Of a DNA stretch of 49,117 nt, positions 1 to 22,514 are shown one piece after another; the stretch's first letter is position 1; each line of letters starts with the position of its first letter. A program made the position numbers and the translations under genes. The stretch is taken from sequence record SRR31156797_472; one strand, written 5' to 3'. The notes beneath the pieces are model-generated. The model was not told where the DNA came from, ran no database searches, and saw nothing but the letters and a program-made list of their open reading frames with translations.

Positions 1-32
1 AGTTTCTTTGATATGTTTAAAAGGTGGATAAA

Positions 33-806
33 ATGAAAGTATTAATATTAGCTGGTGGATTAGGAACAAGAATATCTGAAGAGTCTCATTTAAAACCAAA
101 ACCTATGATAGAGATAGGAGGGAAGCCTATACTTTGGCATATTATGAAAATATATTCCCATTATGGTTATAATGAATTTGTGATTTTACTAGGATATAAA
201 GGCTACTTTATAAAAGAGTTTTTTGCAAACTATTATCTACATCAAAGTGATATCACTTTTGATATGAAAGATGGGAAAATGGAAGTCCATAACAATAGTA
301 GTGAACCATGGAAAGTGACACTTATCGATACTGGCCTCAATAGTATGACTGGAGGAAGAATAAAACGTGCTAAAAAATTTATAGAAGATAGTACTTTTTT
401 GTTAACCTATGGTGATGGTGTGAGTGATGTAAATATACAAGAAGTAGTGAAGTTTCATCAAAAAAACAAAAAAATGGCTACTCTTACAGCAATACAACCA
501 GCTGCTAGATTTGGGGCATTGGATATCGATAATGGCTTAGTTAATAGTTTTGTAGAGAAGCCTGATGGAGATGGGAATTGGGTGAATGGTGGATTTATGG
601 TATGTGAACCTGAAGTATTAAATTTAATTGAAGGAGATTCTACTTCATTTGAACAATATCCATTGCAAACACTTGCGAAAAGGGATGAATTGAGTGCTTT
701 TAAGCATTATGGTTTTTGGCAATGTATGGATACACAAAGAGACAAAAAAGTTTTAAATGATTTATGGGAAAATTCAAGCATACCATGGAAAGTATGGAAT
801 GACTAA
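33..806 (+). CDS. rfbF: Glucose-1-phosphate cytidylyltransferase
   Basis: ILAGGLGTRISEESHLKPKPMIEIG, TGGRIKR, LTYGDG, WQCMDT motifs. ATG at 33 follows AAGGTGG, preferred over the ORF-track GTG at 24. Confidence 0.95.
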   Translation: MKVLILAGGLGTRISEESHLKPKPMIEIGGKPILWHIMKIYSHYGYNEFVILLGYKGYFIKEFFANYYLHQSDITFDMKDGKMEVHNNSSEPWKVTLIDTGLNSMTGGRIKRAKKFIEDSTFLLTYGDGVSDVNIQEVVKFHQKNKKMATLTAIQPAARFGALDIDNGLVNSFVEKPDGDGNWVNGGFMVCEPEVLNLIEGDSTSFEQYPLQTLAKRDELSAFKHYGFWQCMDTQRDKKVLNDLWENSSIPWKVWND

Positions 807-1893
807 TCTTTTTGGTAGTATTTATAAAAATAAAACTATTTTAGTAACAGGTCATACTGGATTTAAAGGTTCATGGCTTGTATACTGGCTTGAGTTAATG
901 GGAGCCAAAGTTATAGGATATGCTTTAAAAGCTCCTACTAACCCTAACCATATAGGATTATTAGATCTTGATATTACATCTATAGAGGGGGATATAAGGG
1001 ATCTAGATAAATTAAACAATGTTTTAAGAAAATATAATCCAGATATTGTCTTTCACCTTGCAGCACAACCTTTAGTAAGATTATCCTATTTAAATCCTAT
1101 AGAAACTTATGAGATAAATGTAATGGGTACTTTAAAAGTTTTTGAAGCCTGCAAAACAAATAATATAAAAGCTATAGTAAATATAACCAGTGATAAAGCA
1201 TATGAAAATAAAGAACAAATATGGGGATATAAAGAAATTGATCCTATGGGAGGCTATGATCCATATAGCTCCTCAAAAGCCTGTAGTGAACTTTTAACTA
1301 CATCTTATAGAAATTCATATTTTAATCTAGATGATTATAAAAATACACATAATACCCTACTGGCAAGTTGTAGAGCAGGAAATGTTATAGGTGGTGGAGA
1401 CTGGGCAAAAGATAGATTACTTGTAGATATTATGTTAGCTGTCTCTAAAAATGAAAAAGTTCTTATAAGAAACCCTAATTCTACTAGACCTTGGCAACAT
1501 GTCCTCGAATCTCTGAGCGGCTATTTAAGTATAGGACAAAAACTTCTTGAAGAGGATAAACAGTTTGCAACAGCTTGGAATTTTGGAGCTACAAATAAAA
1601 ATATGACGGTAAAAGAATTAGTAAAAACCAGTAAAAGATATTGGAATAAAATAGATTATACAATCAATCAAAATAAGGATAATTTGCATGAAGCAAACTT
1701 ATTAAAACTCGATTGTACTAAGGCAAATACCATTTTACAATGGGAAAATATATGGGATAGTGAACAAACACTAGAAAAAACAATAACTTGGTATAAAAGC
1801 TATTATGAAGAAGCTAAAGTTTTGACTCAAAATGATTTAAATGAATATATTAATGAAGCAAAAAGTAAAGATCTATTATGGACAAAAAGTTAA
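799..1893 (+). CDS. rfbG: CDP-glucose 4,6-dehydratase
   Basis: VTGHTGFKGSWL, HLAAQPLVR, TSDKAY, YSSSK, RAGNVIGGGDW, RPWQHVLE. Likely start is ATG 799, overlapping the rfbF stop (ORF track 757). Confidence 0.95.
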   Translation: MTNLFGSIYKNKTILVTGHTGFKGSWLVYWLELMGAKVIGYALKAPTNPNHIGLLDLDITSIEGDIRDLDKLNNVLRKYNPDIVFHLAAQPLVRLSYLNPIETYEINVMGTLKVFEACKTNNIKAIVNITSDKAYENKEQIWGYKEIDPMGGYDPYSSSKACSELLTTSYRNSYFNLDDYKNTHNTLLASCRAGNVIGGGDWAKDRLLVDIMLAVSKNEKVLIRNPNSTRPWQHVLESLSGYLSIGQKLLEEDKQFATAWNFGATNKNMTVKELVKTSKRYWNKIDYTINQNKDNLHEANLLKLDCTKANTILQWENIWDSEQTLEKTITWYKSYYEEAKVLTQNDLNEYINEAKSKDLLWTKS

Positions 1894-2447
1894 ATATATC
1901 ATCAACCGATTTTAAAGGTTTATTTATCATTGAACCAAATAGTTTTATTGATGAAAGAGGTTTTTTCTCTAGAATTTTTTGTGAAGAGGAATTACAACAG
2001 ATAGGAAATATACATATAAAACAAATTAATCACTCATACACTAAGGACAAAGGAAGTGTAAGAGGTCTTCATTTTCAATATGAACCAAATAGTGAAGCTA
2101 AAATAATAAAGTGTTTAAAAGGTGCTATTTATGATATAGCAGTAGACATAAGAAAAAACTCACCTACTTTTTTAAAATATTTTTCAATTGAACTCACTCA
2201 AAAGAATCAAAAAATGCTATACATTCCCAAAGGCTTTGCTCATGGTTTTCAAACCTTAGAAAAAGATACAGAAATTCTCTATCTTCATACTAATATATAT
2301 ACTCCAAATAATGAAGCAGGATTAAATATAAAAGATCCAAAAATAAATATAAAGTTACCATTAGATATAGTGTCTTTATCTAAAAGAGATAAAGAACATA
2401 CATTTTTAGATGATCATTTTCAAGGAATAGTTTTAGATGAAATGTAG
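1878..2447 (+). CDS. rfbC: NDP-4-keto-6-deoxyhexose 3,5-epimerase (RmlC/RfbC family)
   Basis: DERGFF, RGLHFQ, DIAVDIR, GFAHGFQTL, LSKRD cupin motifs. Confidence 0.9.
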   Translation: MDKKLNISSTDFKGLFIIEPNSFIDERGFFSRIFCEEELQQIGNIHIKQINHSYTKDKGSVRGLHFQYEPNSEAKIIKCLKGAIYDIAVDIRKNSPTFLKYFSIELTQKNQKMLYIPKGFAHGFQTLEKDTEILYLHTNIYTPNNEAGLNIKDPKINIKLPLDIVSLSKRDKEHTFLDDHFQGIVLDEM

Positions 2448-3648
2448 ATTTTGTAATACCCCTTTAACTCATACTGTAATAGACTTGATAAACTCACCAG
2501 CATCTAACTCCTATTTGAAAAAAGACCAATTAAATGAAGCAGAGGTATTTTATCCTCTTAAAGTTTATGTATGTGATAAATGTAAATTGGTTCAAATAGA
2601 TGAATATAAAAAAGCTAATGATATTTTTAATGAAGAATATGCATATTTTAGTTCATTTTCAAAAAATTGGTTAGAACATGCTAGAAACTATGTAGAGATG
2701 ATAAGTAAACGATTATCATTAGATAGTGAATCTCATGTGATTGAAATAGCTTCTAATGATGGATATTTACTCCAATATTTTCAGCAAAAAAACATTCCCT
2801 GTTTAGGGATAGAACCTACAAAAAGTACAGCAGATGTAGCTAGAGGAAAAGGTATAGAAGTTATAGAAGATTTTTTTGGAATAAACTTAGCAAAAAGTTT
2901 GAAAAATGCAGACCTCATTCTTGGAAATAATGTTTTGGCACATGTTCCAGATATCAATGACTTTGTCAAAGGTTTAAAAATAGTGCTTAAAAAAAATGGA
3001 ACTATAACTATGGAGTTTCCCCATTTACTTAAACTTATAGCAGAAAATCAATTCGATACTATTTATCATGAACATTATTCGTATTTCTCATTATATTCAG
3101 TTATACAAATATTTGAAAAACATGGTTTAAAAATATATGATGTAGAAGAACTATCAACACATGGTGGAAGTTTAAGAATATATGCTACACACACTGACAA
3201 TAATATTATGATAGTAAATAGTGTTACAAATATAGTAGCAAAAGAAAAAAAGTTTGGTCTATATGATATGACTACATATACTTTATTTCAAGATAAAGCA
3301 AATAAAGTAAAATATGATCTTTTAGAGTTTTTATTAACTGCTAAAAAAGAGAAGAAAAGAGTAGTAGGATACGGAGCTGCTGCAAAAGGAAATACTCTTT
3401 TAAATTACTCTGGAATCAAAAATGATCTAATTGATTTTGTAGTGGACAAATCACCTTATAAACAAGAAAAGTATCTCCCTGCAAGTCATATACCAGTAGT
3501 AAGTGAAGAGTATATAAAAGATATAAAACCTGATTACATTTTGATTCTTCCTTGGAATATTAAAAGTGAAATCATATCCCAATTAGATTATGTAAAAAAA
3601 TGGGATTGTAAGTTTGTCACAGCAATACCTCAACTGGAGATATTTTAA
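2437..3648 (+). CDS. NDP-hexose 3-C-methyltransferase (Zn-binding, class I SAM)
   Basis: N-terminal CRFC...CDKC Zn motif, EIASNDG, IYHEHYSYF, THGGSLR, GYGAAAKG, LPWN; TcaB9/TylCIII-type architecture. Confidence 0.88.
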   Translation: MKCRFCNTPLTHTVIDLINSPASNSYLKKDQLNEAEVFYPLKVYVCDKCKLVQIDEYKKANDIFNEEYAYFSSFSKNWLEHARNYVEMISKRLSLDSESHVIEIASNDGYLLQYFQQKNIPCLGIEPTKSTADVARGKGIEVIEDFFGINLAKSLKNADLILGNNVLAHVPDINDFVKGLKIVLKKNGTITMEFPHLLKLIAENQFDTIYHEHYSYFSLYSVIQIFEKHGLKIYDVEELSTHGGSLRIYATHTDNNIMIVNSVTNIVAKEKKFGLYDMTTYTLFQDKANKVKYDLLEFLLTAKKEKKRVVGYGAAAKGNTLLNYSGIKNDLIDFVVDKSPYKQEKYLPASHIPVVSEEYIKDIKPDYILILPWNIKSEIISQLDYVKKWDCKFVTAIPQLEIF

Positions 3649-4769
3649 TGAATAAAAAACATATATCTTATGCAAAACCTAGTATTACTGATATTGAGAA
3701 AAAATATGTATGTGATGCGATTGAAAATGGATGGGGGAAAGCTTGTTATAATTATATTTTTAAATTTCAAGAGAGTTATAAAAAATATTTAAATGTATCC
3801 CATGCAATTGCTACATCAAGCTGTACAGGAGCTTTACATATTGCTCTTAAAACAATAGGTATTGAACCTAATGATGAGATTATTGTTCCTGATGCAACTT
3901 GGGTTGCATCAGTGGCACCGATAACATATCTATGTGGCACTCCAATATTTGTTGATGTTTTAGAAGACACCTGGTGTATTGATCCAAAAAAACTAGAAAA
4001 TGCTATTACTCCCAAAACAAAAGCCATCATAGTTGTTCATTTATATGGTAGTGTGTGTGAGATGGATGAAATAATGGAAATAGCAAAAAAATATGGTCTT
4101 TATGTAATAGAAGATGCTGCTGAAGCTATTGGAAGTGAATATAAAGGCAAAAAAGCAGGATCAATGGGGGATTTTGGAGTTTTTTCTTTTCATGGAACTA
4201 AAACTATCACTACTGGTGAGGGTGGAATGTTAGTATGCAATGATAAAGCATTGTATGAAAAAGCCTCTATTTTACATGATCATGGGAGAGATCCACAAAT
4301 TGAAAAAACTTTTTGGGCAGAATATATAGGATTTAAATATAAAATGTCAAATATTCAAGCAGCTATAGGCTATGGACAAATGCAAAGAATAGAGATATTA
4401 GTACAACGAAAAATTGATATTTTTTATAGATATAAAGAACTATTATCCAAAATCAATAATATTACTCTTAATAAAGAACAGGCATATTGCAAAAACAGCT
4501 ATTGGATGCCTACTATCATTTTAGATGAAACTTTAGGGATTAAAGCAAAAGAATTAATAAAATATTTAAATAATCATCATATAGATGCCAGACCATTTTT
4601 TTATCCTGTGAGTAGTTTTCCAGAATTCAAAGAAGAAGATAAAAACAAAATAAGTAAAAAGCTATCACAATATGGTTTGAACCTTCCTAGCAATTTTGAT
4701 ATGACACAAAATGATATAGAAAGAGTTGTACAACTTTTAAAACAATTTATCGGTAAAGATATAAAATGA
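3648..4769 (+). CDS. DegT/DnrJ/EryC1/StrS sugar aminotransferase (perosamine synthase-like)
   Basis: SSCTGALH, EDAAEA, FSFHGTKTITTGEGG with PLP Lys. Confidence 0.9.
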   Translation: MNKKHISYAKPSITDIEKKYVCDAIENGWGKACYNYIFKFQESYKKYLNVSHAIATSSCTGALHIALKTIGIEPNDEIIVPDATWVASVAPITYLCGTPIFVDVLEDTWCIDPKKLENAITPKTKAIIVVHLYGSVCEMDEIMEIAKKYGLYVIEDAAEAIGSEYKGKKAGSMGDFGVFSFHGTKTITTGEGGMLVCNDKALYEKASILHDHGRDPQIEKTFWAEYIGFKYKMSNIQAAIGYGQMQRIEILVQRKIDIFYRYKELLSKINNITLNKEQAYCKNSYWMPTIILDETLGIKAKELIKYLNNHHIDARPFFYPVSSFPEFKEEDKNKISKKLSQYGLNLPSNFDMTQNDIERVVQLLKQFIGKDIK

Positions 4770-5413
4770 AAAAAGAAGAACTTATTATTTGGGGGGCAAC
4801 AGGACAAGCAATAGTCTTGGAAGAATTTTTAAAGGAGCATTTTACAATCAAAGCTTTTTTTGACAATAACAATACTATAAAAAGTCCTTTTTCTTACATT
4901 CCTATTTTTTATGGGAAAAAGGAGTTTGAAAAATGGTCACAAACAAATAATAAATGTTCTTTTACAGTTGCAGTAGGTGGAGCACATGGAAAAGACAGGG
5001 TGGGAATATCCAAATATCTACTAGATAAAGGCTTTGAACCAATCAATGCTATTCATCCTAAATCAATTATTGCTTCTAATGCAGAGTTAGGAACAGGTAC
5101 TCAAATTATGATGGGAGCTGTTATCGCGGCAAAAGTGAAAATTGGAGATTATTCAATTATCAATACAGCTTCCTCAATTGATCATGAATGTGAAATATCA
5201 AGAGGGTGTCATATTGGCCCAGGAACTAAACTAGCTGGTAATATAAAGATAGATGAATATACATTTATAGGAACAGGTGCTATTATATTACCAAATATAA
5301 AAATAGGAAAAAATTGTGTTATTGGTGCAGGAAGTGTAGTAACAAAAGATATTCCTGACAATAAAATAGTTTATGGTAATCCGGCACAAATCAAAGGAGA
5401 AACAAATGGATGA
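4766..5413 (+). CDS. Sugar N/O-acetyltransferase, NeuD/PglD/PerB hexapeptide family
   Basis: IWGATGQA N-domain, INTASSIDHEC, hexapeptide repeats, GAGSVVTKD, GNPA. Confidence 0.88.
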   Translation: MKKEELIIWGATGQAIVLEEFLKEHFTIKAFFDNNNTIKSPFSYIPIFYGKKEFEKWSQTNNKCSFTVAVGGAHGKDRVGISKYLLDKGFEPINAIHPKSIIASNAELGTGTQIMMGAVIAAKVKIGDYSIINTASSIDHECEISRGCHIGPGTKLAGNIKIDEYTFIGTGAIILPNIKIGKNCVIGAGSVVTKDIPDNKIVYGNPAQIKGETNG

Positions 5414-6152
5414 AATAGAAAAATTTGAATTAGAGAAAAAAAATAATATTGAGAAACTTTCTGATGAGAAATATAAAAAACTTGGATTAGAGTTTATCAA
5501 TAAAACAGCAGATTTACAATATTCATACAATTTTTCATGGTTAGGACGACCTATAATACAATTTCCACAGGATATTATTGCTTTAGAAGAGATTATTTGG
5601 GAAGTCAAACCTGATTTGATTATAGAAACAGGAATAGCACATGGAGGTTCATTAATATTTTCTGCATCTATGCTTACACTTCTTGAAGCTTGTAAAGAGA
5701 TTGAAAATGGACAAGTTTTAGGGATTGATATAGATATACGTGAACATAATAAAAAAGCAATAGAATCACACCCTATGAGTAGTAAAATTACTATGTTTGA
5801 AGGTTCAAGTATAGATGAAAATATGATAACATCAGTGAAAACATTCGCTAAAGATGCTAAAAAAATATTAGTATGTCTTGATAGTAACCATACCCATGAT
5901 CATGTGTTAGCAGAATTAGAGGCCTATGCAGATTTAGTAAGTATAGATAGTTATTGTTGTGTATTTGATACAGTTATTGAAGATATGCCTAAAGATAGTT
6001 TTCCTCATAGACCTTGGGATATAGGGAACAATCCTAAAACAGCTGTTTTCGAGTTTTTAAAAAATAATGATCACTTTGAAATTGATAGAAGTAGAGAAAA
6101 CAAAACCCTTATAACTGTTGCACCGAGTGGTTACCTAAAAAGAGTAAAATAG
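5406..6152 (+). CDS. CmcI (cephalosporin hydroxylase)/rhamnosyl O-methyltransferase family protein
   Basis: YSYNFSWLGRPIIQFPQD, IETGIAHGGSL, LDSNHTHDHV, NNPKTAV, APSGYLKR. ATG 5406 follows AAGGAG (ORF track 5373). Confidence 0.88.
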   Translation: MDEIEKFELEKKNNIEKLSDEKYKKLGLEFINKTADLQYSYNFSWLGRPIIQFPQDIIALEEIIWEVKPDLIIETGIAHGGSLIFSASMLTLLEACKEIENGQVLGIDIDIREHNKKAIESHPMSSKITMFEGSSIDENMITSVKTFAKDAKKILVCLDSNHTHDHVLAELEAYADLVSIDSYCCVFDTVIEDMPKDSFPHRPWDIGNNPKTAVFEFLKNNDHFEIDRSRENKTLITVAPSGYLKRVK

Positions 6153-6155: not shown

Positions 6156-9100
6156 ATGGATACAGTAATAAATCAAAACTTATCATATCTTCAAAAGAAC
6201 TTTCCAAAAATACTTCATAAGTTGCAAAACCATACCTATGATCAACAACATCAAAGAGTAGATATTGGATCAAAGCTCAATCTAAAAATCAACATCATAA
6301 GAGATAAAAATGATATAGAATCATTTAGTTCTCCATCCTATAAGATTATAGAACAGCAAGAGATAATTAAACAAAAGCATATTAATGTTTCTAAAGTCGT
6401 TATCTTTAGTTCTTTTGATATAAATAGTTTAAAACACTTTTTAACTAATCAACACATACATAGTGTTTTGATTTATGAAACAAACTTGAATTATTTATTA
6501 GAAGTTTTCCATCAAATAGCATTTTTTCAATATAGTATTGAAAAAAAAATATTTATAGCAACAGACTATAATGAATTAAAAGAACTCACTTTTAAGTTTT
6601 TACTTGATAAATCATATTGTAATAATGACATTTTACTTTATAGTTCAAATCAAAAATATACTGCTTTATTAGAAAAAGAGTATGTTGGGATATTTAATGA
6701 TTATTTTAGCTTACATTTTGAAGCTGCTGCATCAGCAGTTCAGAATAAAAGTTTAAATATAAAAAATAAGTATCAATACCTAGCTGTATATAATCAATTT
6801 CAAAATATAGAACTCCCCATACTTTTTTTAGCCCCTGGTCCATCATTACTAAAAAACATACAATGGATAGAAAAACATAAAAATAACTTTATTATTGCAG
6901 CGGCGGGTTCTGCCCTTAATATACTTTATGAAAATCATATTGATGTTGATATTGTATTTTCTGTAGATATGAAAATAAGAATAGCAGAGCAATTTAAAAA
7001 TATTGATCTAAAATATTTGGAAAAAGTACTATTAATTGCTAATGAATCAACTGATATAGGAGTATTGAAACTCTTTAAAAAAGTACTTATCTCTGAATAT
7101 TCAAATATAACTGTTAATCATTTTGCTTTGAATATTTTATTAGGTTTAGGGCACAAACTTATTCTTACTTTGGGAAATGATGCTGCTTATGGAAGTGATG
7201 GAAATGAATATTCAAATGGAGTTATATTTGATAAATACGAAGATAAGAGTTATATCAATGTAGCTGGAAACTTTCAACAAAATGTTTTAAGTAGTCATGA
7301 GTTTTTTAACCATATAAAAATATATACAGAGATTTTATCTAAGCATGAAAATCTATCTATATTTAATCTATCTGATGGAGCGTATATTGAGGGAATGATC
7401 CCTTTAGCAATATCAGAAATTCAAGAAAATACATTTCCTGATATTGAGGATAAAAAACTAGAATATCAAAAAACACTTCATAGTTTTACATACCAATTAA
7501 CTTATTTTGAAGATATTAAAGTGATTATTTCATCATTAAAAAAAATAAAAAAACGTGTTCATAAAAATCATTCAAAGAACCATATTGAATTGATAAAAGA
7601 TGTATCAAAAGCTACTTTTGAGCTAAACAACTCTCATATTCAAAAAATATTAATGAATATATTATTTCATGTCAATAATATTATAGATGAAAAAGATACT
7701 ACTCTGCTAGATATCTATACATTATACAAAAATATTTTAGATGAAACTCTCGATACCTACATAAAAGCCTACTCTTATCAAAGTAGCATTCATAAACCAA
7801 ATATAATCATTGAAAACTATTTACCGAAAAATGATCAATTTAGTATCAATAAACTTGTAGAGATAAATGGAGTTAAAACAGATTCTTTTTTAAAAACTCT
7901 GTTATATAAAAAGAAACTCAAAAATAAAAATAGTTTAGCTAAGGAAGATGGAAAGTTTATGGTTGGACTATATCTTGATACTTTAGATCAGGATTTTAAA
8001 TATGCTTTAGAAATTCAATTGTTTAACTTTACAAATCACAAAAGCCACCTTTTAAAACTTAACTCTTTATATCAGATCATGACTAAAATGAGGTTAGAAA
8101 AATTAGAGGATATAGCTTATGATATAATAATTGATATGTATACTATACTATTAAATGATCAATCTTTTTTTAATACAAACTATTCCTATTTAAGTGAGTA
8201 TATAAAATATTATTATGCATTTTATCTTATTAAAAGAGATGAACTTTTTAAAAAAAACTTATCAGAACTAAGCTCGTTATTCAAAAACTTATTAAATACT
8301 AATATTAGTGTTTTTGAATTAATAAGCATCTATGACCATATCACTTTTATCTACTGGGGAACTATGAAACAAGAATCTGATTTAAAAGTGTGTAACAACT
8401 TAGTAATTGAATCTTTTTCACTATATTTAAATAACTATTTTAAAAAAACAAATATTAAAAAAAGAGAACATCTAGTATCAAATAAAAAGAAAAGAATTTG
8501 CTTTTTATTGAGTAAACTAGTAAAAAGTGGTAGCTACTCTGTAGGCAAAATTGAGTATTCATTATTGCGATCACTATCTTTAGATTCAAATGAACAGTAT
8601 GATTTTTATTGTTATGAATATTGGGGAATCGAAGAAGAATACAAACAAGAAATAGAAAAGTTTAGTATAAACTTAAGAAGCTTTAGTCATATTAATGATA
8701 TCAAAACTAAACTTGAGAATATGAGGAATGCATTTTTTGAAGATAATATAGATGTGGTAATAAGTGATATGCCATGGGGAATACCATCTTATTTGTTTGA
8801 AAGTAGAGTTGCTAATAAACAAATATATTGGTCTCATGGATGGCATGAATACAATATGCAGGAGATAGATAAAAGAGTCACTCATGGCTTAGCTTTTGAA
8901 ACAGAATTTTTAAATGGATACCAATATTATAAAATAAACATACCCCATTTACATATTAAAGAAAACGAAGATAATAAAGAGGCAAAACTAATAAAAAAGG
9001 ACTATTTAAATAAATTTGGATCTGATACTGTTATTTTAGGAACCCTTAGTAGACTTGTTAAAATAAATAATAATGAATTTATAAAAACACTCAGTAAAAT

Positions 9101-9578
9101 AATGTCTCAAAATACAAATACTATTTACCTTGCATGTGGGGAAGGAGATCAAAAAGATATTACGAAAAAGTTATTAACATATAATATAGATATGAAAAGA
9201 TTTTTATTTTTAGGTCAGGTTTCATCAGAAATTTATTTTGAGGTACTTGATATTTGGTGTGATACTTTTCCTATAGTACAAGGGGAGTCTAGAGTAGAAG
9301 CAGCGTTAAGAGGGTTACCACTTTTATTATTAATGCAAGAGAGCAATGAAGGGTTCAATTTACCAAAAGAACAAATCAAAGGGTATAGACCTCAGCAAGA
9401 AATAGCTAAGAAATACAATTATCCCTTTTATCCTATTATCACTCCTGAAGAATATATTATTATGGCAAAGGCACTTATTAGTAATGAATCATTTAGAAAA
9501 AAGATAGGGCAATCTTTCCAAAATGATTATCAAAGAAGTTATATAAAAAATAAATTAGATTACTCTCATATCTTATAA
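6156..9578 (+). CDS. Maf/DUF115 (MptE-like) flagellin glycosyltransferase domain fused to a C-terminal GT41 (OGT/HMW1C/FlmG-like) glycosyltransferase domain
   Basis: N-half: LAPGPSL..NI.WI, IAAAGSALNIL, VFSVD, LGNDAAY, FNLSDGAYIEG. C-half: SRVANKQIYWSHG, GTLSRLVKIN, LDIWCDTFP..QGES..EA..RGLP. Confidence 0.75.
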   Translation: MDTVINQNLSYLQKNFPKILHKLQNHTYDQQHQRVDIGSKLNLKINIIRDKNDIESFSSPSYKIIEQQEIIKQKHINVSKVVIFSSFDINSLKHFLTNQHIHSVLIYETNLNYLLEVFHQIAFFQYSIEKKIFIATDYNELKELTFKFLLDKSYCNNDILLYSSNQKYTALLEKEYVGIFNDYFSLHFEAAASAVQNKSLNIKNKYQYLAVYNQFQNIELPILFLAPGPSLLKNIQWIEKHKNNFIIAAAGSALNILYENHIDVDIVFSVDMKIRIAEQFKNIDLKYLEKVLLIANESTDIGVLKLFKKVLISEYSNITVNHFALNILLGLGHKLILTLGNDAAYGSDGNEYSNGVIFDKYEDKSYINVAGNFQQNVLSSHEFFNHIKIYTEILSKHENLSIFNLSDGAYIEGMIPLAISEIQENTFPDIEDKKLEYQKTLHSFTYQLTYFEDIKVIISSLKKIKKRVHKNHSKNHIELIKDVSKATFELNNSHIQKILMNILFHVNNIIDEKDTTLLDIYTLYKNILDETLDTYIKAYSYQSSIHKPNIIIENYLPKNDQFSINKLVEINGVKTDSFLKTLLYKKKLKNKNSLAKEDGKFMVGLYLDTLDQDFKYALEIQLFNFTNHKSHLLKLNSLYQIMTKMRLEKLEDIAYDIIIDMYTILLNDQSFFNTNYSYLSEYIKYYYAFYLIKRDELFKKNLSELSSLFKNLLNTNISVFELISIYDHITFIYWGTMKQESDLKVCNNLVIESFSLYLNNYFKKTNIKKREHLVSNKKKRICFLLSKLVKSGSYSVGKIEYSLLRSLSLDSNEQYDFYCYEYWGIEEEYKQEIEKFSINLRSFSHINDIKTKLENMRNAFFEDNIDVVISDMPWGIPSYLFESRVANKQIYWSHGWHEYNMQEIDKRVTHGLAFETEFLNGYQYYKINIPHLHIKENEDNKEAKLIKKDYLNKFGSDTVILGTLSRLVKINNNEFIKTLSKIMSQNTNTIYLACGEGDQKDITKKLLTYNIDMKRFLFLGQVSSEIYFEVLDIWCDTFPIVQGESRVEAALRGLPLLLLMQESNEGFNLPKEQIKGYRPQQEIAKKYNYPFYPIITPEEYIIMAKALISNESFRKKIGQSFQNDYQRSYIKNKLDYSHIL

Positions 9579-13489: not shown

Positions 13490-14680
13490 ATGAGTAATAT
13501 TTTAAATCTAATTGGACGTGACACTCCACTGTTTTTAGAAGATATAAATACATATAATAATATACTAGAAAAAATTATTTCTACTTCTTCTTTTTTAGTA
13601 ATAGGTGGTGCTGGTTCAATAGGACAAGCAGTAGTTAAAGAAATATTTAAAAGAAACCCTATAAAACTACATGTTATTGATATTTCAGAAAACAATTTAG
13701 TAGAACTTGTAAGAGATATTAGAAGCTCATTTGGATATATTGATGGTGAATTCTCTACATTTGCTTTAGATATTGGAAGTCTTGAATATGATGCATTTAT
13801 AAAAAATGATGGTAAATATGACTATGTATTAAATTTATCTGCTTTAAAACATGTAAGAAGTGAAAAAGACCCCTTTACTTTGATGAGAATGATAGATACT
13901 AATATTTTTAATACAAAAAAAACAATCCAGCAATCAATTGACCATGGTGTGAAAAAGTATTTTTGTGTAAGTACCGACAAAGCAGCTAACCCAGTAAATA
14001 TGATGGGTGCAAGTAAAAAAATAATGGAAATGTTTGTAATGAACAAATCAAAAGATATAGATATATCAATGGCAAGATTTGCAAATGTGATTTTTAGTGA
14101 TGGTAGTTTAGTACATGGATTTAATCAAAGACTCCAAAAACAACAACCAATTGTAGCACCCCAAGATATAAAAAGATATTTTATCACACCTCAAGAAAGT
14201 GGTGAACTTTGTCTTATGTCTTGTATCTTTGGTAAGAATAGAGATATATTTTTTCCTAAGTTAAATCAGCACTTACATCTTATAACTTTTTCAGAAATAG
14301 CTATTAAATACCTTGAAAATTTAGGCTATAAAGCATATGTCTGTCAAACAGAAGAGGAGGCGAGAGAATTAGTAAAAACACTCCCACAAAAAGATAAATG
14401 GCCTTGTATTTTTAGCTTTAGTGATACTACAGGAGAAAAAGACTTTGAAGAGTTTTATACAGATAAAGAAACTTTAGATATGAGTCGATTTGAAAACTTA
14501 GGTGTTATAAAAAATGAAGCTTTTTTAGATGAAGATAAACTCAAATTTTTTGAAAAAAACATTACTCACTTTAAAGAAAATCTATTATGGACAAAAGAAG
14601 ATATACTAAAAGAATTTTTAACTATTATACCAGATTTTAAACATAAAGAAACTGGTAAATATCTTGATGGGAAAATGTAG
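13490..14680 (+). CDS. legB: NDP-GlcNAc 4,6-dehydratase, legionaminic acid pathway (LegB-like)
   Basis: GGAGSIG, ALKHVRSEKDPFTLMRM, STDKAANP, ARFANV.FSDGSL, TTGEKDFEEF; first gene of the leg block. Confidence 0.85.
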   Translation: MSNILNLIGRDTPLFLEDINTYNNILEKIISTSSFLVIGGAGSIGQAVVKEIFKRNPIKLHVIDISENNLVELVRDIRSSFGYIDGEFSTFALDIGSLEYDAFIKNDGKYDYVLNLSALKHVRSEKDPFTLMRMIDTNIFNTKKTIQQSIDHGVKKYFCVSTDKAANPVNMMGASKKIMEMFVMNKSKDIDISMARFANVIFSDGSLVHGFNQRLQKQQPIVAPQDIKRYFITPQESGELCLMSCIFGKNRDIFFPKLNQHLHLITFSEIAIKYLENLGYKAYVCQTEEEARELVKTLPQKDKWPCIFSFSDTTGEKDFEEFYTDKETLDMSRFENLGVIKNEAFLDEDKLKFFEKNITHFKENLLWTKEDILKEFLTIIPDFKHKETGKYLDGKM

Positions 14681-14681
14681 T

Positions 14682-15818
14682 GTGCAACAAATAATTGATT
14701 TTATAAAAAAAACTTTTAATCATAAAGATTTTATAGCCTTACATGAACCAAGATTTTCAGGCAATGAAAAAAAATATATCAATGAATGTATAGATTCTAC
14801 ATTTGTTTCAAGTGTTGGTAAATATGTAGATATTTTTGAAAAAGAGTTTTCTAAAACAGTGAAATCTAAATATGCAATTGCTACTATAAATGGTACTGCC
14901 GCATTACATATCTCTTTATTATTAGCTGACGTACAAAAAGATGATGAAGTTATAACTCAACCACTTACCTTTATTGCTACTTGTAATGCCATTAGTTATC
15001 TAAATGCCAAACCCGTATTTATTGATGTTGACTTAGACACCTTGGGGATGAGTCCAGACTCTTTAAAAATGTTTTTAGAAAAAAACTGTATGCTCATAAA
15101 CAACAAATGTATAAATAAATTAACACATAAAACAATAAAAGCTTGCGTTCCTATGCATACATTTGGTCATCCTTGCAAAATTGAAGAAATAAAAAACATT
15201 TGTGATGAGTGGCATATTATATTAGTTGAAGATGCTGCTGAATCTTTAGGAAGCTATTACAAAAACAAACACACTGGAACTTTTGGGAAATTAGGTGTTT
15301 TTTCTTTTAATGGGAATAAAATTATCACTTCAGGCGGTGGTGGAGTTATTGTAACTGATGATGAAATATTGGCAAAAAGAGCAAAACATATAACAACAAC
15401 TGCAAAAACTTCTCACCCATATGAATATATACACAATGAAATAGGATATAATTATCGTTTACCAAATATTAATGCTGCCCTATTAGTTGCTCAACTAGAA
15501 CAATTAAATATATTTTTAGAATCCAAAAGAGATTTATATACACACTATAAAAAGTTTTTTTCTACTCTAAATATTAAACTTTTATCTGAACCAAAAGATT
15601 CAAAGTCAAATTATTGGTTCCAAGCAATTTTATTTAATAACATAAAGCAAAGGGATGAGTTTTTAAAACTTACCAATAAAAATGGAGTAATGACTAGACC
15701 TATATGGAAACTTATGAATGAACTAGAAATGTTTAAAGATTCTCAAACAACAAACTTAACCAATGCAAAATATTTAGAACACAGAGTTGTAAACATTCCT
15801 AGTTCGGTGAGGATATAA
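14682..15818 (+). CDS. legC: LegC-family 4-aminotransferase
   Basis: IALHEP, FVSSVG, MHTFGHP, EDAAESLGS, SFNGNKIITSGGGG, RLPNINAAL. GTG 14682 is the likely start (ORF track 14664). Confidence 0.9.
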   Translation: MQQIIDFIKKTFNHKDFIALHEPRFSGNEKKYINECIDSTFVSSVGKYVDIFEKEFSKTVKSKYAIATINGTAALHISLLLADVQKDDEVITQPLTFIATCNAISYLNAKPVFIDVDLDTLGMSPDSLKMFLEKNCMLINNKCINKLTHKTIKACVPMHTFGHPCKIEEIKNICDEWHIILVEDAAESLGSYYKNKHTGTFGKLGVFSFNGNKIITSGGGGVIVTDDEILAKRAKHITTTAKTSHPYEYIHNEIGYNYRLPNINAALLVAQLEQLNIFLESKRDLYTHYKKFFSTLNIKLLSEPKDSKSNYWFQAILFNNIKQRDEFLKLTNKNGVMTRPIWKLMNELEMFKDSQTTNLTNAKYLEHRVVNIPSSVRI

Positions 15819-16715
15819 ATGAAATTAAATATTGGTTATTTTGCAGATGGTCCATGGAGTCACAATGCATTTGAAAAGATAATTAAAGATTTTGATATAA
15901 CCATATCTTTCATATGTGTTAGATATGATACAGAAGATCTTATTTTAAAGGATTTTGCAGAGAAATATAACATAGACTATTTAAAACATAAGGATATCAA
16001 TTCTGATGAATTTATCTCAATTGTAGAAAAATACAATTGTAACTTATTTGTCTCAATGTCATTTAATCAAATATTTAAAACAAAAATGATTAATTTACCC
16101 CCATACAAAATTATAAATTGTCATGCAGGAAAGTTACCATTTTATAGAGGAAGAAATATATTAAACTGGGCATTAATCAATGATGAAAAAGAGTTTGGTA
16201 TTACAGTACATTATGTTGATGAAGGGATTGACACTGGAGATATTATCCTACAACAATGCTTTGAAATTTTAGAGGAGGATAATTATAAATCTTTACTTGA
16301 AAAAGCTTATATAGGTTGTGCAAATATTCTTTATGAGGCGATTTTACTGTTTAAAAAAGGGAAAGTTAAAGTAAAACAACAAAGTGAAATACACCCTATA
16401 GGTTTTTATTGTTCTCAAAGAAAAGTAGGTGATGAAATTTTAAATTGGAACCAAACAAGTCGAGAAATATTTAATTTTGTAAGAGCTATTTGTAGCCCTG
16501 GTCCAAATGCAAGGGCATTTATAAACGGAAAAGAGATGAAAATAAATAAAGTGGAATTTATACCAAATGCACCAATTTATAACTGTACCATTGGTGCTAT
16601 AATTAATAAAACAAGTAATGGCTTTTTAGTGAAAACCAAGGATAGCTTTATAAAAGTTACCAAATTTGATTATGATGGTATTATTAAAGTAGGAGACCGA
16701 TTTGAAGCGAAATAA
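15819..16715 (+). CDS. Sugar N-formyltransferase (Fmt-like, N10-formyl-THF dependent)
   Basis: INCHAGKLPFYRGR, HYVDEGIDTGDII, Fmt-like C-terminal domain. Confidence 0.85.
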   Translation: MKLNIGYFADGPWSHNAFEKIIKDFDITISFICVRYDTEDLILKDFAEKYNIDYLKHKDINSDEFISIVEKYNCNLFVSMSFNQIFKTKMINLPPYKIINCHAGKLPFYRGRNILNWALINDEKEFGITVHYVDEGIDTGDIILQQCFEILEEDNYKSLLEKAYIGCANILYEAILLFKKGKVKVKQQSEIHPIGFYCSQRKVGDEILNWNQTSREIFNFVRAICSPGPNARAFINGKEMKINKVEFIPNAPIYNCTIGAIINKTSNGFLVKTKDSFIKVTKFDYDGIIKVGDRFEAK

Positions 16716-17706
16716 TGTATTTATAATTGCAGAAGCAGGAGTTAATCATAATGGTTCAATTAAATTAGCTAAAAAACTTATAGATGTAGCTGTTGAAGCA
16801 GGTGCTGATGCTGTAAAGTTTCAAACATTTAAGACTGAAAATCTTGTTTCAAAGAATGCTGAAAAAGCAAAATATCAACAACAAACTACAAAGAAAGAAG
16901 AGTCTCAATTTGAGATGTTAAAAAAACTTGAATTAGATCAAAACACCCATAAAGAACTTATAGCGTATTGTAAAATGAAAAATATCATGTTTCTTTCTAC
17001 TTCATTTGATCATGATAGTACTAAATTACTCAATACATTAGGACTTGAAATATTTAAAATACCAAGTGGAGAGATTACAAACCTTCTATACCTTCGAGAT
17101 ATTGGAAAACTCAATAAAAAAGTGATTCTTTCTACCGGTATGTCTAATATGGGTGAAATTGAAACCGCATTGAACATCTTAATCAGCTCAGGAACGCAAA
17201 AAGAAAATATTACCATATTACATTCTAATACAGAGTATCCAACTCCAATGGAAGATGTTAATTTAAAAGCTATGATAACAATTGGAAATACTTTTAATAT
17301 AAACTATGGATATAGCGATCATACTTTGGGTATAGAAGTAAATATTGCAGCAGTTGCTCTTGGAGCTAGTTGTATAGAAAAACACTTTACGCTAGATAGA
17401 ACTATGGAAGGTCCTGATCATAAGGCAAGTTTAGAACCCGATGAACTAAAAAAGATGATAAACGCTATAAGAAATATTGAAGTAGCATTAGGTAGTTCTA
17501 TTAAAAAACCTTCAAAAAGTGAAATACCAAATATAAGAATAGCAAGAAAATCAATTATTGCAAAAACTAATATAAAAAAAGGTGAGCTTTTAACAGAACA
17601 AAATATAACAATAAAAAGACCAGGAGATGGGATATCCCCAATGAGATGGGATAATATTATTGGAACTTTTGCAATGAAAGACTATAAAAAAGATGATTTA
17701 ATATGA
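16702..17706 (+). CDS. legI: Legionaminic acid (nonulosonate) synthase, NeuB/LegI
   Basis: IAEAGVNHNG, VKFQTF, KIPSGE, YSDHT, IEKHFT, C-terminal SAF domain. TTG start after AGGAG. Confidence 0.9.
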   Translation: MKRNNVFIIAEAGVNHNGSIKLAKKLIDVAVEAGADAVKFQTFKTENLVSKNAEKAKYQQQTTKKEESQFEMLKKLELDQNTHKELIAYCKMKNIMFLSTSFDHDSTKLLNTLGLEIFKIPSGEITNLLYLRDIGKLNKKVILSTGMSNMGEIETALNILISSGTQKENITILHSNTEYPTPMEDVNLKAMITIGNTFNINYGYSDHTLGIEVNIAAVALGASCIEKHFTLDRTMEGPDHKASLEPDELKKMINAIRNIEVALGSSIKKPSKSEIPNIRIARKSIIAKTNIKKGELLTEQNITIKRPGDGISPMRWDNIIGTFAMKDYKKDDLI

Positions 17707-18863
17707 AACAAAAAATTTGTGTAATTACAGGGACAAGAGCTGAATATGGATTACTTTTTTGGCTTATGAAAGAGATAGAAGCTGACAAAGAACTTGAACT
17801 TCAACTCATTGTAACTGGGATGCATCTTAGTCCTGAATTTGGGCTCACATACAATGAAATAGAAAAAGAGTTTAATATAAATAGAAAAATCGAAATAATT
17901 TTATCATCTGATACTTCCATAGGGGTATCTAAATCTATGGGTTTAGCTCAAATTTCTTTCGCAGAAAGTTATGATAATTTAAAACCTGATCTTATAATTG
18001 TACTAGGTGATAGATATGAAATTTTTAGTGCAGTAAGTGCTGCTATGGTAACACGTATTCCAGTAGCTCATATTCATGGAGGAGAAATAACAGAAGGTGC
18101 ATTTGATGAATCTTTCAGACATAGCATAACAAAAATGAGCCATCTTCATTTTACAGCTACTGAAAAATACAAGAGTAGAGTCATTCAACTTGGAGAGTCT
18201 CCAGAAAGAGTTTTTAATGTTGGAGGAATGGGTATTGAAAATATTAATAAATTAAAACTTCTAAACAAAGATGAATTTGAAAAGTCAATTAATTTTACAT
18301 TAAATAAAAAAAATATATTGGTAACTTTTCATCCAACAACTTTAGAAAATAATACAGCAAAAGATCAATTTCAAGAGCTTCTTAATGCTATTGATGAACT
18401 TCAAGATACAAATATAATTTTTACAAAAGCAAATAGCGATACAGATGGAAGAATCATAAATAAAATGTGTGAAGAATATGTATTACAAAATCCACATAAA
18501 TCTAAAGAATTTACTTCTCTAGGACAATTACGATACCTAAGTGCCTTACAATATATGGATGCTGTAGTCGGTAACAGTTCAAGTGGTCTTCTTGAAGCAC
18601 CAAGTTTTAAAATAGGTACTATCAATATTGGAGATAGACAAAAAGGAAGAATAAAAGCTTCTAGTGTGATTGATTGTCAACCAATCAAAAGTACTATAAA
18701 TAATGCTTTTGAAAAACTTTATTCAGTAGAATTTCAAACAAACCTCAAAAACACTATAAACCCATATGGGGAAGGATGTGCTAGCAAAAAAATTATTGAA
18801 CAAATAAAAAAAGTTAAATTGAAAAATTTATTAAAAAAATCATTTTATGATTTAAAACTTTAA
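17703..18863 (+). CDS. legG: Hydrolysing NDP-diacylbacillosamine 2-epimerase, NeuC/LegG
   Basis: TGTRAEYG, TGMHLS, LGDRYE, HIHGGE, GNSSSG, GDRQKGR. Confidence 0.9.
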   Translation: MKQKICVITGTRAEYGLLFWLMKEIEADKELELQLIVTGMHLSPEFGLTYNEIEKEFNINRKIEIILSSDTSIGVSKSMGLAQISFAESYDNLKPDLIIVLGDRYEIFSAVSAAMVTRIPVAHIHGGEITEGAFDESFRHSITKMSHLHFTATEKYKSRVIQLGESPERVFNVGGMGIENINKLKLLNKDEFEKSINFTLNKKNILVTFHPTTLENNTAKDQFQELLNAIDELQDTNIIFTKANSDTDGRIINKMCEEYVLQNPHKSKEFTSLGQLRYLSALQYMDAVVGNSSSGLLEAPSFKIGTINIGDRQKGRIKASSVIDCQPIKSTINNAFEKLYSVEFQTNLKNTINPYGEGCASKKIIEQIKKVKLKNLLKKSFYDLKL

Positions 18864-18872
18864 AGAGAATAA

Positions 18873-19634
18873 ATGAAAACACGAATAATCGTTAAACTTG
18901 ATGTCAAACCACCTTATATTGTAAAACCAGTGCATTTTGAAGGTTTGAGAAAAATTGGATTTACAAATACTTTAGCAAAAAAATATTATGATCAAGGGGC
19001 TGATGAAATTGTTTATATCGATATTGTTGCTTCACTTTATCGACGAGAAATTCTATTTAGTGAAATTGAAAAAACTGCAAATGAATTATTTATACCTTTT
19101 GGTGTAGGAGGTGGAGTAAAAACAATAGAAGACTTTTCTAAACTATTCCGTAAAGGTGCCGATAAAGTTATAATTAATACGTATGCAATTCAAGAAAATC
19201 CAAACATTATAAATCAAGCAGCACAAATTTTTGGAAATCAAGCGATAGTTGTAAATATTGAAGCAAAGAAATGGGAAACCTGGTATGAATGTTATACAGA
19301 TTGTGGAAGAATTCAATCAGGTAAAGATGTTATTCAATGGGCACAAGAAGTTGAATCAAGAGGGGCAGGAGAAATATTCTTACAATGTGTTGATACAGAT
19401 GGTAGACAAAGAGGATTTGATGTAGAGTTGATAAAACAAATCGTTGATAGTGTAAATATACCAGTTGTAGCTGCAAGTGGTGCTGGAAAGCTAGAAGACA
19501 TTAAAAAACTTGTAGAATATGCCAGACCAAGTGGAATAGCTATATCAAGCTTACTACATTATGATAAAGTTACCATATCTGATATTAAAAAAGTAATAAA
19601 ACAAGGCGAAGATTATTATGATAAAAAACATTGA
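18873..19634 (+). CDS. HisF-like cyclase paralog (WbuZ-type ammonia channel), copy 1
   Basis: RIIVKLDVK, GADE, GGGV, GADKV, DTDG, AASGAG; located within a glycan cluster. Confidence 0.85.
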   Translation: MKTRIIVKLDVKPPYIVKPVHFEGLRKIGFTNTLAKKYYDQGADEIVYIDIVASLYRREILFSEIEKTANELFIPFGVGGGVKTIEDFSKLFRKGADKVIINTYAIQENPNIINQAAQIFGNQAIVVNIEAKKWETWYECYTDCGRIQSGKDVIQWAQEVESRGAGEIFLQCVDTDGRQRGFDVELIKQIVDSVNIPVVAASGAGKLEDIKKLVEYARPSGIAISSLLHYDKVTISDIKKVIKQGEDYYDKKH

Positions 19635-20442
19635 AATAGATATAGAAGCTTACAATAAAAATGGATTCTTATTAATTAATAATTTTTTTGAAAAAGAGAT
19701 GCTTGAAAAATTTAATATTACTTGTATAGAGTTTTTAACAAAATCTTTAAAGGATTTTAATATAAAAACAAATGATGTTTTGCATGATGGATTTATACAA
19801 TTAGATAAACTAAATCATCAAAGTATTCATAACTTTTACAATTTAATCAAAAACTCTAATATATTACAAGAATTTAAAAATTCTAAAAAAGTTTATACTG
19901 TAGTGCAACGACTACTAAATATGAGTAACAATCAACTCATATATAATATGTATGGTGTTTCAAGAATGGATCCACCAAATGATAATAGATTTTTATATAA
20001 ATGGCATCAAGAATCATATTATTCTATACCAAACTCACAATCTGTACAATTATGGGCTCCTCTAGTAGATAAAAGTTCAGATATTAATGGAACTATAGAT
20101 GTTCTTATTGGATCTCATTTAGAAGAATTACCTCATTATATTGAAAAAGTTCCTAATGGACATGAACAAAAATTTATAATGGATAAGGATATTAAAAAGC
20201 GTTATAAATTATTAAAAGTAGAAATTAATCCTGGTGATGCATTATTTTTCCATCCATATTTAATTCATAAAAGTAATAATAATTGTGGAGATAGAGTTAG
20301 ATACTCTCTTGTTTCACATTATATCAATCCCTATTCTGTAAATTTTGATTTTGATTATAATGATTCCCTATTTGCTCAATATCATAAAAAAAGATGCGTA
20401 AATTATCAAAACTATACACAAGGAGATCATAATAATATCTAA
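19618..20442 (+). CDS. PhyH-family Fe(II)/2OG dioxygenase
   Basis: YNKNGFL, WHQE, LWAPL, NGTIDVLIGSH, PGDALFFH..LIHKS..N....RYS. Confidence 0.82.
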   Translation: MIKNIEIDIEAYNKNGFLLINNFFEKEMLEKFNITCIEFLTKSLKDFNIKTNDVLHDGFIQLDKLNHQSIHNFYNLIKNSNILQEFKNSKKVYTVVQRLLNMSNNQLIYNMYGVSRMDPPNDNRFLYKWHQESYYSIPNSQSVQLWAPLVDKSSDINGTIDVLIGSHLEELPHYIEKVPNGHEQKFIMDKDIKKRYKLLKVEINPGDALFFHPYLIHKSNNNCGDRVRYSLVSHYINPYSVNFDFDYNDSLFAQYHKKRCVNYQNYTQGDHNNI

Positions 20443-21919: not shown

Positions 21920-22514
21920 TATAATAGGTCTCATAAATTATGGTGTAGCTGGTAATATTCATAGTATAGAAAAAGCAATTAAAAAAGCTGGAGGAACCAT
22001 ACATATAGTAAATAATAAAGATGACTTAGATTTGGTGGATAAAATTATCATTCCAGGGGTAGGAAGCTTTAAAGATGCTATAATTGAACTTGAAAAAGAT
22101 GAACTTTTAGCACCCTTAAAAAAACATATTCAAAATAAGTATACCCTTGGAATTTGTCTTGGAATGCAAATTCTTGCAACCTTAGGATTTGAATATGGTA
22201 AAATGGAAGGATTAGATGTTATAACAGGTGAAGTAAGACCGATATTAGTAGATGCAAAAATACCCCATATGGGATTTAATACTATAGATTTAGTAAAAGC
22301 AAATTCACTTTTAAGTGGTTTAGAAAATGAAGAGTTTTATTTTATGCATTCATATGAAATGACTAATTATACAAATATAACTTCATTAAGTGATTATTCT
22401 GGTCATAAGTTTGTATCATCTGTTCAAAAAGATAATATTTATGGTGTACAGTTTCACCCTGAAAAAAGTCGTGAAGCTGGAATAAAATTATTCAAAAACT
22501 TTATAGACTTATAA
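21912..22514 (+). CDS. HisH-like glutamine amidotransferase (WbuY-type), copy 1
   Basis: PGVGSF, GICLGMQ, PHMGFN, QFHPEKS; catalytic triad intact. Confidence 0.9.
   Translation: MSNIIGLINYGVAGNIHSIEKAIKKAGGTIHIVNNKDDLDLVDKIIIPGVGSFKDAIIELEKDELLAPLKKHIQNKYTLGICLGMQILATLGFEYGKMEGLDVITGEVRPILVDAKIPHMGFNTIDLVKANSLLSGLENEEFYFMHSYEMTNYTNITSLSDYSGHKFVSSVQKDNIYGVQFHPEKSREAGIKLFKNFIDL

Follow-up and report, generated by a model that had tools for sequence, protein, structure and literature searches.

The fusion gene and its reading frame

The window analysed here is a stretch of 49,117 nucleotides (nt) from sequence record SRR31156797_472. It carries, at positions 6156..9578 of the + strand, a gene predicted to encode a Maf-type flagellin glycosyltransferase joined in one chain to a second glycosyltransferase (GT) of the GT-B type. 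The product has 1140 amino acids (aa), the start codon lying at 6156 and the stop codon at 9576-9578. The gene is a single uninterrupted open reading frame, with no stop or frame change over 3423 nt of about 26% G+C. Its ATG is 3 nt past the stop codon of the upstream methyltransferase gene, and its 3' end overlaps a convergent open reading frame (9573-10451) by 6 nt.

A preliminary description made from the nucleotide sequence alone had proposed this architecture on the basis of short motifs, and all of them are present in the translation: GPSL (residues 228-231), LGND (339-342) and NLSDGAYIEG (404-413) in the N-half, and in the C-half both R884-x-A886-xx-Q889-x-Y891-W892-x-H894-G895 and, at residues 1032-1055, D1032-xx-C1035-DTFP-xxx-G1043-xxxx-E1048-A-xxx-GLP. 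The motifs are more than chance patterns, because the N-half matches the PF01973 profile and the C-half motifs fall on the most conserved columns of their family. The fused architecture holds on three grounds: the PF01973 match, a GT-B structural model whose nearest folds are GT41 enzymes, and the presence of the same join in a homologue.

This homologue, P0022 (1186 aa), comes from a 14.4-kb metagenome contig, is labelled 'hypothetical protein' and carries PF01973 plus PF13692/PF00534. It is collinear with residues 52-1060 of the fusion protein. The preliminary description had allowed that the join might be an assembly artefact; P0022 contradicts this, because a protein only 30% identical is collinear across both halves, and the join is thus not an artefact. 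A second assembly, of the probable source run, contains an identical 49,117-bp contig at about 229x coverage; it derives from the same sample and speaks for reproducibility only, not for independence. That contig matches the window over the stretch 5800-9900 without differences, and the window is apparently the whole contig. Another sequencing run (X2) yielded short fragments only.

The Maf-type N-half

Residues 1 to about 590 are, to judge from profile and alignment, a Maf-type (DUF115, sialyltransferase-like) enzyme. The sole Pfam family in the protein is PF01973, the MptE-like/DUF115 model of the Maf core, which covers residues 207-346 with 64.9 bits (cut-off 34.6; E 9.8e-18); an NCBIfam search of the whole protein returned no family. 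The match lies within the Maf catalytic core (residues 201-445; 6756..7490, + strand), which keeps GPSL, D265, D271, G340, D342, N404, G408 and A409. Alignment with 16 stand-alone Mafs shows N8, E108, G228, P229, S230, L257, I262, D265, G340, D342, N404, G408 and A409 to be invariant, and GPSL 228-231 was counted as invariant across the N-half and the same 16 proteins. This alignment also covers the Maf N-terminal region (residues 1-200; 6156..6755, + strand). PF20157, the Maf N-terminal domain, has no match there at E<=1, yet the region contains the invariant N8 and E108 and a nearly invariant G85.

The only PDB sequence match of the N-half is the Magnetospirillum magneticum Maf 5mu5 (E 0.38). 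According to one report (10.1101/2020.06.03.131540), acidic residues 324 and 415 are critical in this enzyme, and D272, S334 and D357 are critical in CbMaf from C. botulinum. By the offset of the pairwise alignment with 5mu5, D271 falls at position 324, and D342, which belongs to the invariant G-x-D motif, would be the equivalent of residue 415.

The GT-B domain of the C-half

An exhaustive HMMER search with residues 760-1140 (the C-module) against 1.84 billion cluster representatives retrieved 615 relatives at E<=1e-3, of which 333 reach 1e-10 or lower and 75 reach 1e-30 or lower; the top 150 of the 615 were examined. In a family alignment of 103 sequences, G962, R966, K969 and G1043 are invariant, and Q889, W892, H894, G895, F1038 and E1048 are conserved in at least 90%. 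The GT-B N-lobe (residues 776-935; 8481..8960, + strand) contains the R884..Q889-IYW-S-H894-G895 block, which aligns with R-P-A-P-x-Q-x-x-W of the O-GlcNAc transferase (OGT) and of SPINDLY (SPY). The GT-B C-lobe (residues 936-1140; 8961..9575, + strand) contains the four invariant residues (K969 at nt 9060-9062), DTFP at 1036-1039 (nt 9261-9272) and E1048. P0022 and two relatives in which tetratricopeptide repeats (TPR) precede the GT lack the His of the WSHG motif.

PF13844, the Pfam GT41 model (cut-off 25 bits), has no match in the fusion protein. Among 50 of the 150 relatives submitted to Pfam, PF00534 (GT group 1) was found in 17 at E<=1e-3 and PF13844 in four, at 18-26.5 bits, only P0030 scoring above 25; many have no match at all. 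The PF13844 model also found nothing in two genomes that carry the C-module family (G001 and G003), the Caulobacter and Synechococcus controls being positive. The family profile matches a GT group 1 fragment (5i45, E 9e-4), Drosophila OGT (5a01, E 1e-3) and SPINDLY (E 0.06). A smaller profile is collinear with SPINDLY over about 255 columns; this alignment is weak (E 0.36) but has the right order of blocks, and places K969, the lysine of G-R-L-x-K, on the L-A-K-I motif of SPY and DTFP on LDTFP. K969 is a candidate for the C-lobe lysine that binds phosphate, the position altered in the TtOGT K341M entry.

An AlphaFold2 model of residues 701-1140, built from the 103-row alignment, has a mean predicted local distance difference test score (pLDDT) of 89.7 and a predicted TM-score of 0.88, and consists of three leading helices and two Rossmann-like lobes. 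In a Foldseek search of the PDB with this model, the top 50 or so matches are all GT41 enzymes (E 1e-14 to 8e-11; query-normalised TM-score 0.55-0.66), among them T. terrenum OGT, Arabidopsis SPY, Xanthomonas OGT, human and fly OGT and the N-glucosyltransferase AaNGT. Two independent aligners agree that GT41 enzymes are the best structural matches. The C-half is thus modelled as a GT-B fold whose nearest solved relatives are GT41 enzymes, partly owing to the helical lead-in and with a small margin over GT4. 'GT41-like' is used here as a statement about the fold, because the C-half is not a member by Pfam's GT41 model. The preliminary description expected DUF115 and GT41 hits in one chain: the first was obtained by profile (PF01973), and the second by predicted structure but not by the PF13844 profile.

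In three relatives of 1200-1442 aa (P0014, P0021 and P0141), the GT41-like module occupies roughly residues 290-650, and a second GT domain, a strong PF00534/PF13692 match, follows near 1020-1190. By domain content these relatives are another type of double glycosyltransferase built on the same module.

Boundary between the two enzymes

The helical linker of the preliminary description is real in the models, residues ~432-542 and 577-764 being helical, with confidence for 593-764 only. A full-length model is confident from residue 593 onwards, showing about nine helices (593-764) followed by the catalytic lobes. These helices form a TPR-like lead-in of the GT partner (residues 593-775; 7932..8480, + strand; pLDDT ~75-97), of which residues 701-775 superpose on the helices preceding the catalytic domain of OGT and SPY. 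With the full-length model as query, Foldseek aligns about 610-640 columns with SPY where it had aligned about 480, at a high root-mean-square deviation. Canonical TPR matches are absent from the fusion protein.

Between the Maf core and this lead-in lies a helical segment comprising the Maf tail and the linker (residues 446-592; 7491..7931, + strand). Its length of about 145 aa is within the range of the tails of stand-alone Mafs, which extend 122-184 aa beyond the core. Likewise, residues 593-1140 (about 550 aa) have the length of the shortest stand-alone GT proteins (552-595 aa). Comparison of the region 445-700 with Maf tails by hhalign gave nothing significant (E 0.46), comparison with GT N-terminal domains gave a weak match (probability 32%, E 5e-4, query ~634-713), and the BLASTP match to a stand-alone GT protein is significant only from residue 704. 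As sequence comparison could not place residues 445-700, the partner boundary is put near residue ~590 from model confidence and length arithmetic, and the low-confidence stretch 531-591 probably contains the linker. The protein can be read as two nearly complete proteins in one chain, a Maf followed by a GT with a TPR-like arm.

The fusion is rare

The preliminary description suggested a survey of how common the architecture is; one was carried out, and it indicates that the Maf-GT fusion is real but rare and that the unfused pair is common. P0022 is the sole protein matching both the Maf core and the C-module among 153 proteins compared, and the fusion occurs in one of the best 150 of the 615 C-module relatives and in none of 25 genomic loci that contain such relatives. 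In a survey of 401 sampled Campylobacterota genomes, with two candidates scored per genome, 176 gave a match. Among the matches listed, the C-half accounts for 84 in 83 genomes, in frames of at most 889 aa, and the Maf half is found in open frames of at most 873 aa; none spans both halves, which puts the fusion in none of the 401 genomes among these matches. A further 74 weaker matches fall outside those listed.

Other searches added little. A metagenome scan found one further relative, which is truncated at the end of its contig and gives no view of its N-terminus, and a genome scan with an alignment of the two fusions produced 118 pattern matches and no relative. Word-indexed homologue searches, which are insensitive for an AT-rich protein such as this, returned three matches for the whole protein, five for the N-half and one for longer forms; the last search covered 1195-3410 aa, a range that begins above fusions of 1140-1190 aa. 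P0161 (1224 aa) was considered as a second such fusion and rejected, its C-terminal extension not being the C-module (hhalign probability 0.6%). It is a Maf with PF20157 and PF01973 at residues 14-429 and an extension of about 600 aa, for which the atlas leads are weak (glycosyltransferase-family-1, at most 0.85).

In a quick tree, the window protein, P0022 and three TPR-GT proteins (P0005, P0006 and P0007) form a clade with an SH-aLRT value of 100, within which the two Maf fusions are not sisters but are interleaved with the other three. The TPR-GT proteins are 1054-1163 aa long and have true TPR matches; N-terminal regions of about 630-735 aa with canonical TPR take the place of Maf. This quick tree, in which support is by SH-aLRT only, hints that N-terminal modules have been exchanged within the clade.

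The unfused pair beside flagellin genes

All 25 genomic relatives of the C-module are from Campylobacterota (Helicobacter, Wolinella, Sulfurospirillum, Sulfurimonas, Sulfuricurvum, Nautiliaceae, Arcobacteraceae and unclassified Campylobacterales). Stand-alone relatives are 550-750 aa long, with N-terminal parts of 150-330 aa before the module, and family members are labelled 'hypothetical protein', are unnamed or, once, are mislabelled 'Flp pilus assembly protein TadD'. Seventeen of the 25 loci have a stand-alone Maf gene in the 10-kb flank of the GT41-like gene, and the same 17 contain a flagellin gene, mostly between the Maf and GT genes or adjoining them (L001, at 5755-10954, L002, L003, L005, L008, L011, L012, L014-L019, L021 and L023-L025). 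The other eight loci have neither Maf nor flagellin within the flank; one of these is a 4.3-kb contig. In L001, flagellin, Maf and GT genes lie on one strand in that order, and the Maf and GT frames overlap. Judged by gene order, L001 shows the window's gene in its unfused state.

Downstream of the GT41-like gene, the relatives have sugar-tailoring genes outside the nonulosonate pathway. These are radical-SAM enzymes, a split transketolase and methyltransferases in L001, L003 and L013, and an oxidoreductase, aminotransferase and acetyltransferase set in L015. The first set (L001:10958-19885, L003:10982-16641 and L013:12948-16320) comprises two to three radical-SAM(/SPASM) enzymes, a transketolase in N and C halves, and methyltransferases; its gene content suggests that it makes an unusual sugar, possibly one with a two-carbon branch.

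Sugar pathways around the gene

The preliminary description was right about the context of the gene: a cytidine diphosphate (CDP)-glucose operon with a C-methyltransferase is directly upstream, and a legionaminic acid (Leg)-type cluster is nearby. The upstream operon (24..6152, + strand) has seven genes identified by profile matches. They encode a glucose-1-phosphate cytidylyltransferase (TIGR02623, 425 bits against a cut-off of 300), a CDP-glucose 4,6-dehydratase (TIGR02622, 470 bits against 278), an RmlC-type 3,5-epimerase, a sugar C-methyltransferase (PF08421/PF08484), a DegT aminotransferase, a NeuD/PglB/VioB-type N-acetyltransferase and a CmcI-type methyltransferase. The fusion gene is the last cistron of this tight operon for a CDP-glucose-derived branched amino-sugar.

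The legionaminic-acid-type nonulosonate cluster (13490..25476, + strand), also recognised by profile matches, encodes a 4,6-dehydratase, a LegC-family aminotransferase (561 bits against 420), a formyltransferase, NeuB, a NeuC-type 2-epimerase, a WbuX/HisH/HisF amidotransferase set, a CBS-nucleotidyltransferase and a cytidine monophosphate (CMP)-transferase. Only one NeuB and one CMP-transferase are present in the window. Two complete WbuX/HisH-like/HisF-like amidotransferase sets of the acetamidino-forming type are found at 18873-23742 and 29133-31469, which suggests two amidinated positions or two nonulosonate derivatives.

Further tailoring genes at 10462-13273 (- strand), 25657-27684 and 35907-38590 encode a carbamoyltransferase, two radical-SAM/SPASM proteins, a B12-binding radical-SAM C-methyltransferase-like protein and an asparagine-synthase-like amidotransferase. 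A trio of genes at 39642-42406 encodes an aminotransferase, a UDP-GlcNAc 3-dehydrogenase-like oxidoreductase and a hexapeptide acyltransferase; it resembles the downstream set of L015 and may provide a further candidate donor sugar. The convergent open reading frame at 9573-10451 (- strand; 292 aa) has a sole, sub-threshold match to PF23169 (HalD; 25.3 bits against 26). A gene for CowN, a protein sustaining N2 fixation, at 48392-48718 suggests a diazotrophic host; together with a G+C content of about 27% and the taxonomy of the relatives, it points to a free-living member of the Campylobacterota. The 49-kb window contains no flagellar gene.

Comparison with known flagellin glycosyltransferases

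Characterised Mafs work in the cytoplasm, where they load Ser/Thr of flagellin with nonulosonates from CMP-activated donors, and they depend on an element that binds flagellin. In Shewanella, Maf-1 has a C-terminal TPR for this purpose and Maf-2 relies on GlfM, a separate protein of four helices; the two Shewanella enzymes act on different serines of one flagellin (10.1101/2023.12.03.569772). The N-half resembles Mafs (PF01973/MAF_flag10; 5mu5 and the enzymes of C. jejuni, H. pylori and Shewanella) in its above-cut-off PF01973 match, in keeping GPSL, D265, D271, G-x-D342 and N..GA, in its helical tail of Maf length and in lying beside a CMP-nonulosonate pathway. Unlike Mafs, the fusion protein carries a second glycosyltransferase of about 550 aa after the tail, has no PF20157 match and has Tyr352 in place of His. 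Fusion is known from Shewanella Maf-1 too, where the added part is a TPR without catalytic activity; here the partner is a glycosyltransferase.

FlmG binds flagellin through an N-terminal TPR and transfers pseudaminic acid (Pse) or Leg with a GT-B domain (PMC7591256; 10.1101/2022.03.25.485807). It has been reported to be restricted to Caulobacterales and to organisms lacking Maf. The C-half and its stand-alone relatives are likened to FlmG (596 aa, Caulobacter/Brevundimonas) by layout: a helical or TPR-like arm is followed by a GT-B domain. The relatives sit in flagellin loci. Unlike FlmG, the C-half family belongs to Campylobacterota and co-occurs with Maf, and its donor may be a nucleoside diphosphate (NDP)-hexose instead of CMP-Pse or CMP-Leg.

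The GT41 enzymes, namely OGT, the O-fucosyltransferase SPINDLY and the N-glucosyltransferases HMW1C/AaNGT, are cytoplasmic protein glycosyltransferases, a property in which the C-half is likened to them. They are its best structural matches, lead-in helices included, and their conserved blocks (R-x-A-P-x-Q..W, G..L.K and LDTFP) are collinear in it. Unlike GT41 enzymes, the C-half has the C-lobe motif G-E-S-x-x-E and no match to PF13844, and the closest Pfam matches of its relatives are the GT4-type families PF00534/PF13692. A precedent for extra glycosyltransferases beside flagellin glycosylation genes is the flagellar glycosylation island of Aeromonas hydrophila, in which further GTs lengthen the flagellin glycan chains (10.1101/2024.06.23.600306). 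These are separate proteins making penta- and hexasaccharides, whereas here one additional GT is fused to Maf. No report of a Maf fused to a second glycosyltransferase, or of GT41/GT-B flagellin enzymes in Helicobacter or Campylobacter, was found in the set of open-access papers that was searched.

Proposed function and its alternatives

The explanation that we favour, by a little over even chances, is that the gene encodes a cytoplasmic bifunctional flagellin O-glycosyltransferase that arose by fusion of two enzymes encoded by neighbouring genes in other Campylobacterota. Like characterised Mafs, the Maf half would modify Ser/Thr of flagellin, its donor being a CMP-activated derivative of legionaminic acid. 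The GT-B half, placed on the same flagellin by the helical arm, would transfer a nucleotide-diphospho sugar, most likely the CDP-activated, C-methyl-branched, N-acetylated 4-amino-6-deoxyhexose predicted for the upstream operon, and would attach it either to the first sugar or to further Ser/Thr residues. Fusion would fix the two activities at 1:1 and keep both on one bound substrate. A bifunctional enzyme had already been suggested in the preliminary description, and that suggestion gains indirect support: both halves keep critical residues, the separate genes flank flagellin in 17 of 25 loci, and those of L001 are in the same order and overlap. The proposed donors are suggested only by operon structure and by the usual donors of the two folds.

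Several points weigh against this bifunctional reading. Tyr352 occupies a column, after the G-x-D-L motif, in which at least 90% of aligned Mafs have His, and the same column is also Tyr in P0022. The model of residues 1-590 has a pLDDT mostly below 50, MAFFT having placed the Maf rows of the input alignment on the C-half; this part of the full-length AlphaFold2 model was not used. No Pfam or NCBIfam model recognises the C-half, and no flagellin gene lies within the 49-kb window. The donors could also be reversed, or both be nonulosonates, because FlmG uses CMP-Pse or CMP-Leg; FlmG enzymes are the only characterised GT-B flagellin transferases, and they do not use NDP-hexoses. Both candidate donors carry cytidine.

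The strongest competitor, which is nonetheless unlikely, takes both halves as nonulosonate transferases: the GT-B half would be FlmG-like and use a CMP-Leg derivative, the Maf half would use a second Leg derivative or other Ser/Thr sites, and the CDP-sugar would be employed elsewhere, for example in lipooligosaccharide (LOS) or capsule. FlmG, with its TPR arm, GT-B domain and Pse or Leg donors, provides the model, the two complete WbuX/HisH/HisF sets and many tailoring enzymes make more than one Leg derivative plausible, and Shewanella offers a documented case of two Mafs that modify different serines of the same flagellin. Against this, the 3-nt gap implies close translational coupling of the fusion gene to the CDP-sugar operon, the GT41-like gene of the relatives is followed by non-nonulosonate sugar genes, the window has a single NeuB and a single CMP-transferase, and the solved GT41 enzymes were, by the titles of their PDB entries, crystallised with UDP- or GDP-sugars.

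It is less probable still that one half only is catalytic and the other is a flagellin-binding or scaffolding module, for example a GT-B pseudoenzyme serving as the TPR does in Maf-1 or a Maf disabled by the change from His to Tyr352. The requirement of Mafs for a flagellin-binding add-on (the Maf-1 TPR, or GlfM for Maf-2), the TPR-like arm with which the C-half starts, the Tyr in place of a nearly invariant Maf His in both fused proteins and the loss of the WSHG His from P0022 and two TPR-GT relatives would all fit. These are set against the retention in the C-half of G962, R966, K969 and G1043, invariant across 103 sequences, the retention of D265, D271 and D342 in the Maf half, and the persistence of stand-alone forms of both enzymes beside flagellin.

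We give little credence to an acceptor other than flagellin, such as a general O-glycosylation target, capsule or LOS. The lack of a flagellin or flagellar gene in the window would agree with it, as would the decoration of other surface structures with nonulosonates; Maf is flagellin-specific in all characterised cases, and a flagellin gene is found beside 17 of the 25 C-half relatives. Finally, an assembly or frameshift artefact merging two adjacent genes is highly improbable: a one-base error could merge a pair such as the adjacent, overlapping genes of L001, which have the same order, but P0022 is collinear through the junction on a different metagenome contig, the ~229x assembly is identical (for reproducibility only, the sample being the same), and 3423 nt of 26% GC DNA lack any stop or frame change.

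A broader proposal is put forward more tentatively than the bifunctional reading, at somewhat below even chances. The C-half family, which is widespread in Campylobacterota and present in at least 83 of the 401 sampled genomes, may be a second class of flagellin glycosyltransferase beside Maf, TPR-armed and GT41-like, that transfers non-nonulosonate NDP-sugars directly onto flagellin or onto the Maf-attached sugar; here the sugar would be the CDP-activated branched amino-deoxyhexose.

Implications for flagellin glycosylation

Flagellin glycosylation is required for filament assembly and motility in many polar flagellates and has so far been described through two alternative classes of enzyme, Maf (GT-A-like) and FlmG (TPR plus GT-B). 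The gene described here physically joins both enzyme types. What appears to be new is the occurrence of the two known flagellin glycosyltransferase types in one chain, together with an unannotated FlmG-like/GT41-like family that accompanies Maf in Campylobacterota; relatives with the FlmG-like layout lie beside Maf and flagellin in Helicobacter, Wolinella, Sulfurospirillum, Sulfurimonas, Nautiliaceae and Arcobacteraceae. If the proposed functions are correct, the flagellins of these bacteria carry two chemically different glycans, and the Maf-GT fusion is a natural 'Rosetta stone' for two enzymes acting on one bound substrate. Dual glycosylation is a concrete, testable prediction, and the fusion offers a one-polypeptide system for acceptor recognition as well as a candidate for the enzymatic transfer of a rare branched sugar from its CDP-activated form to protein.

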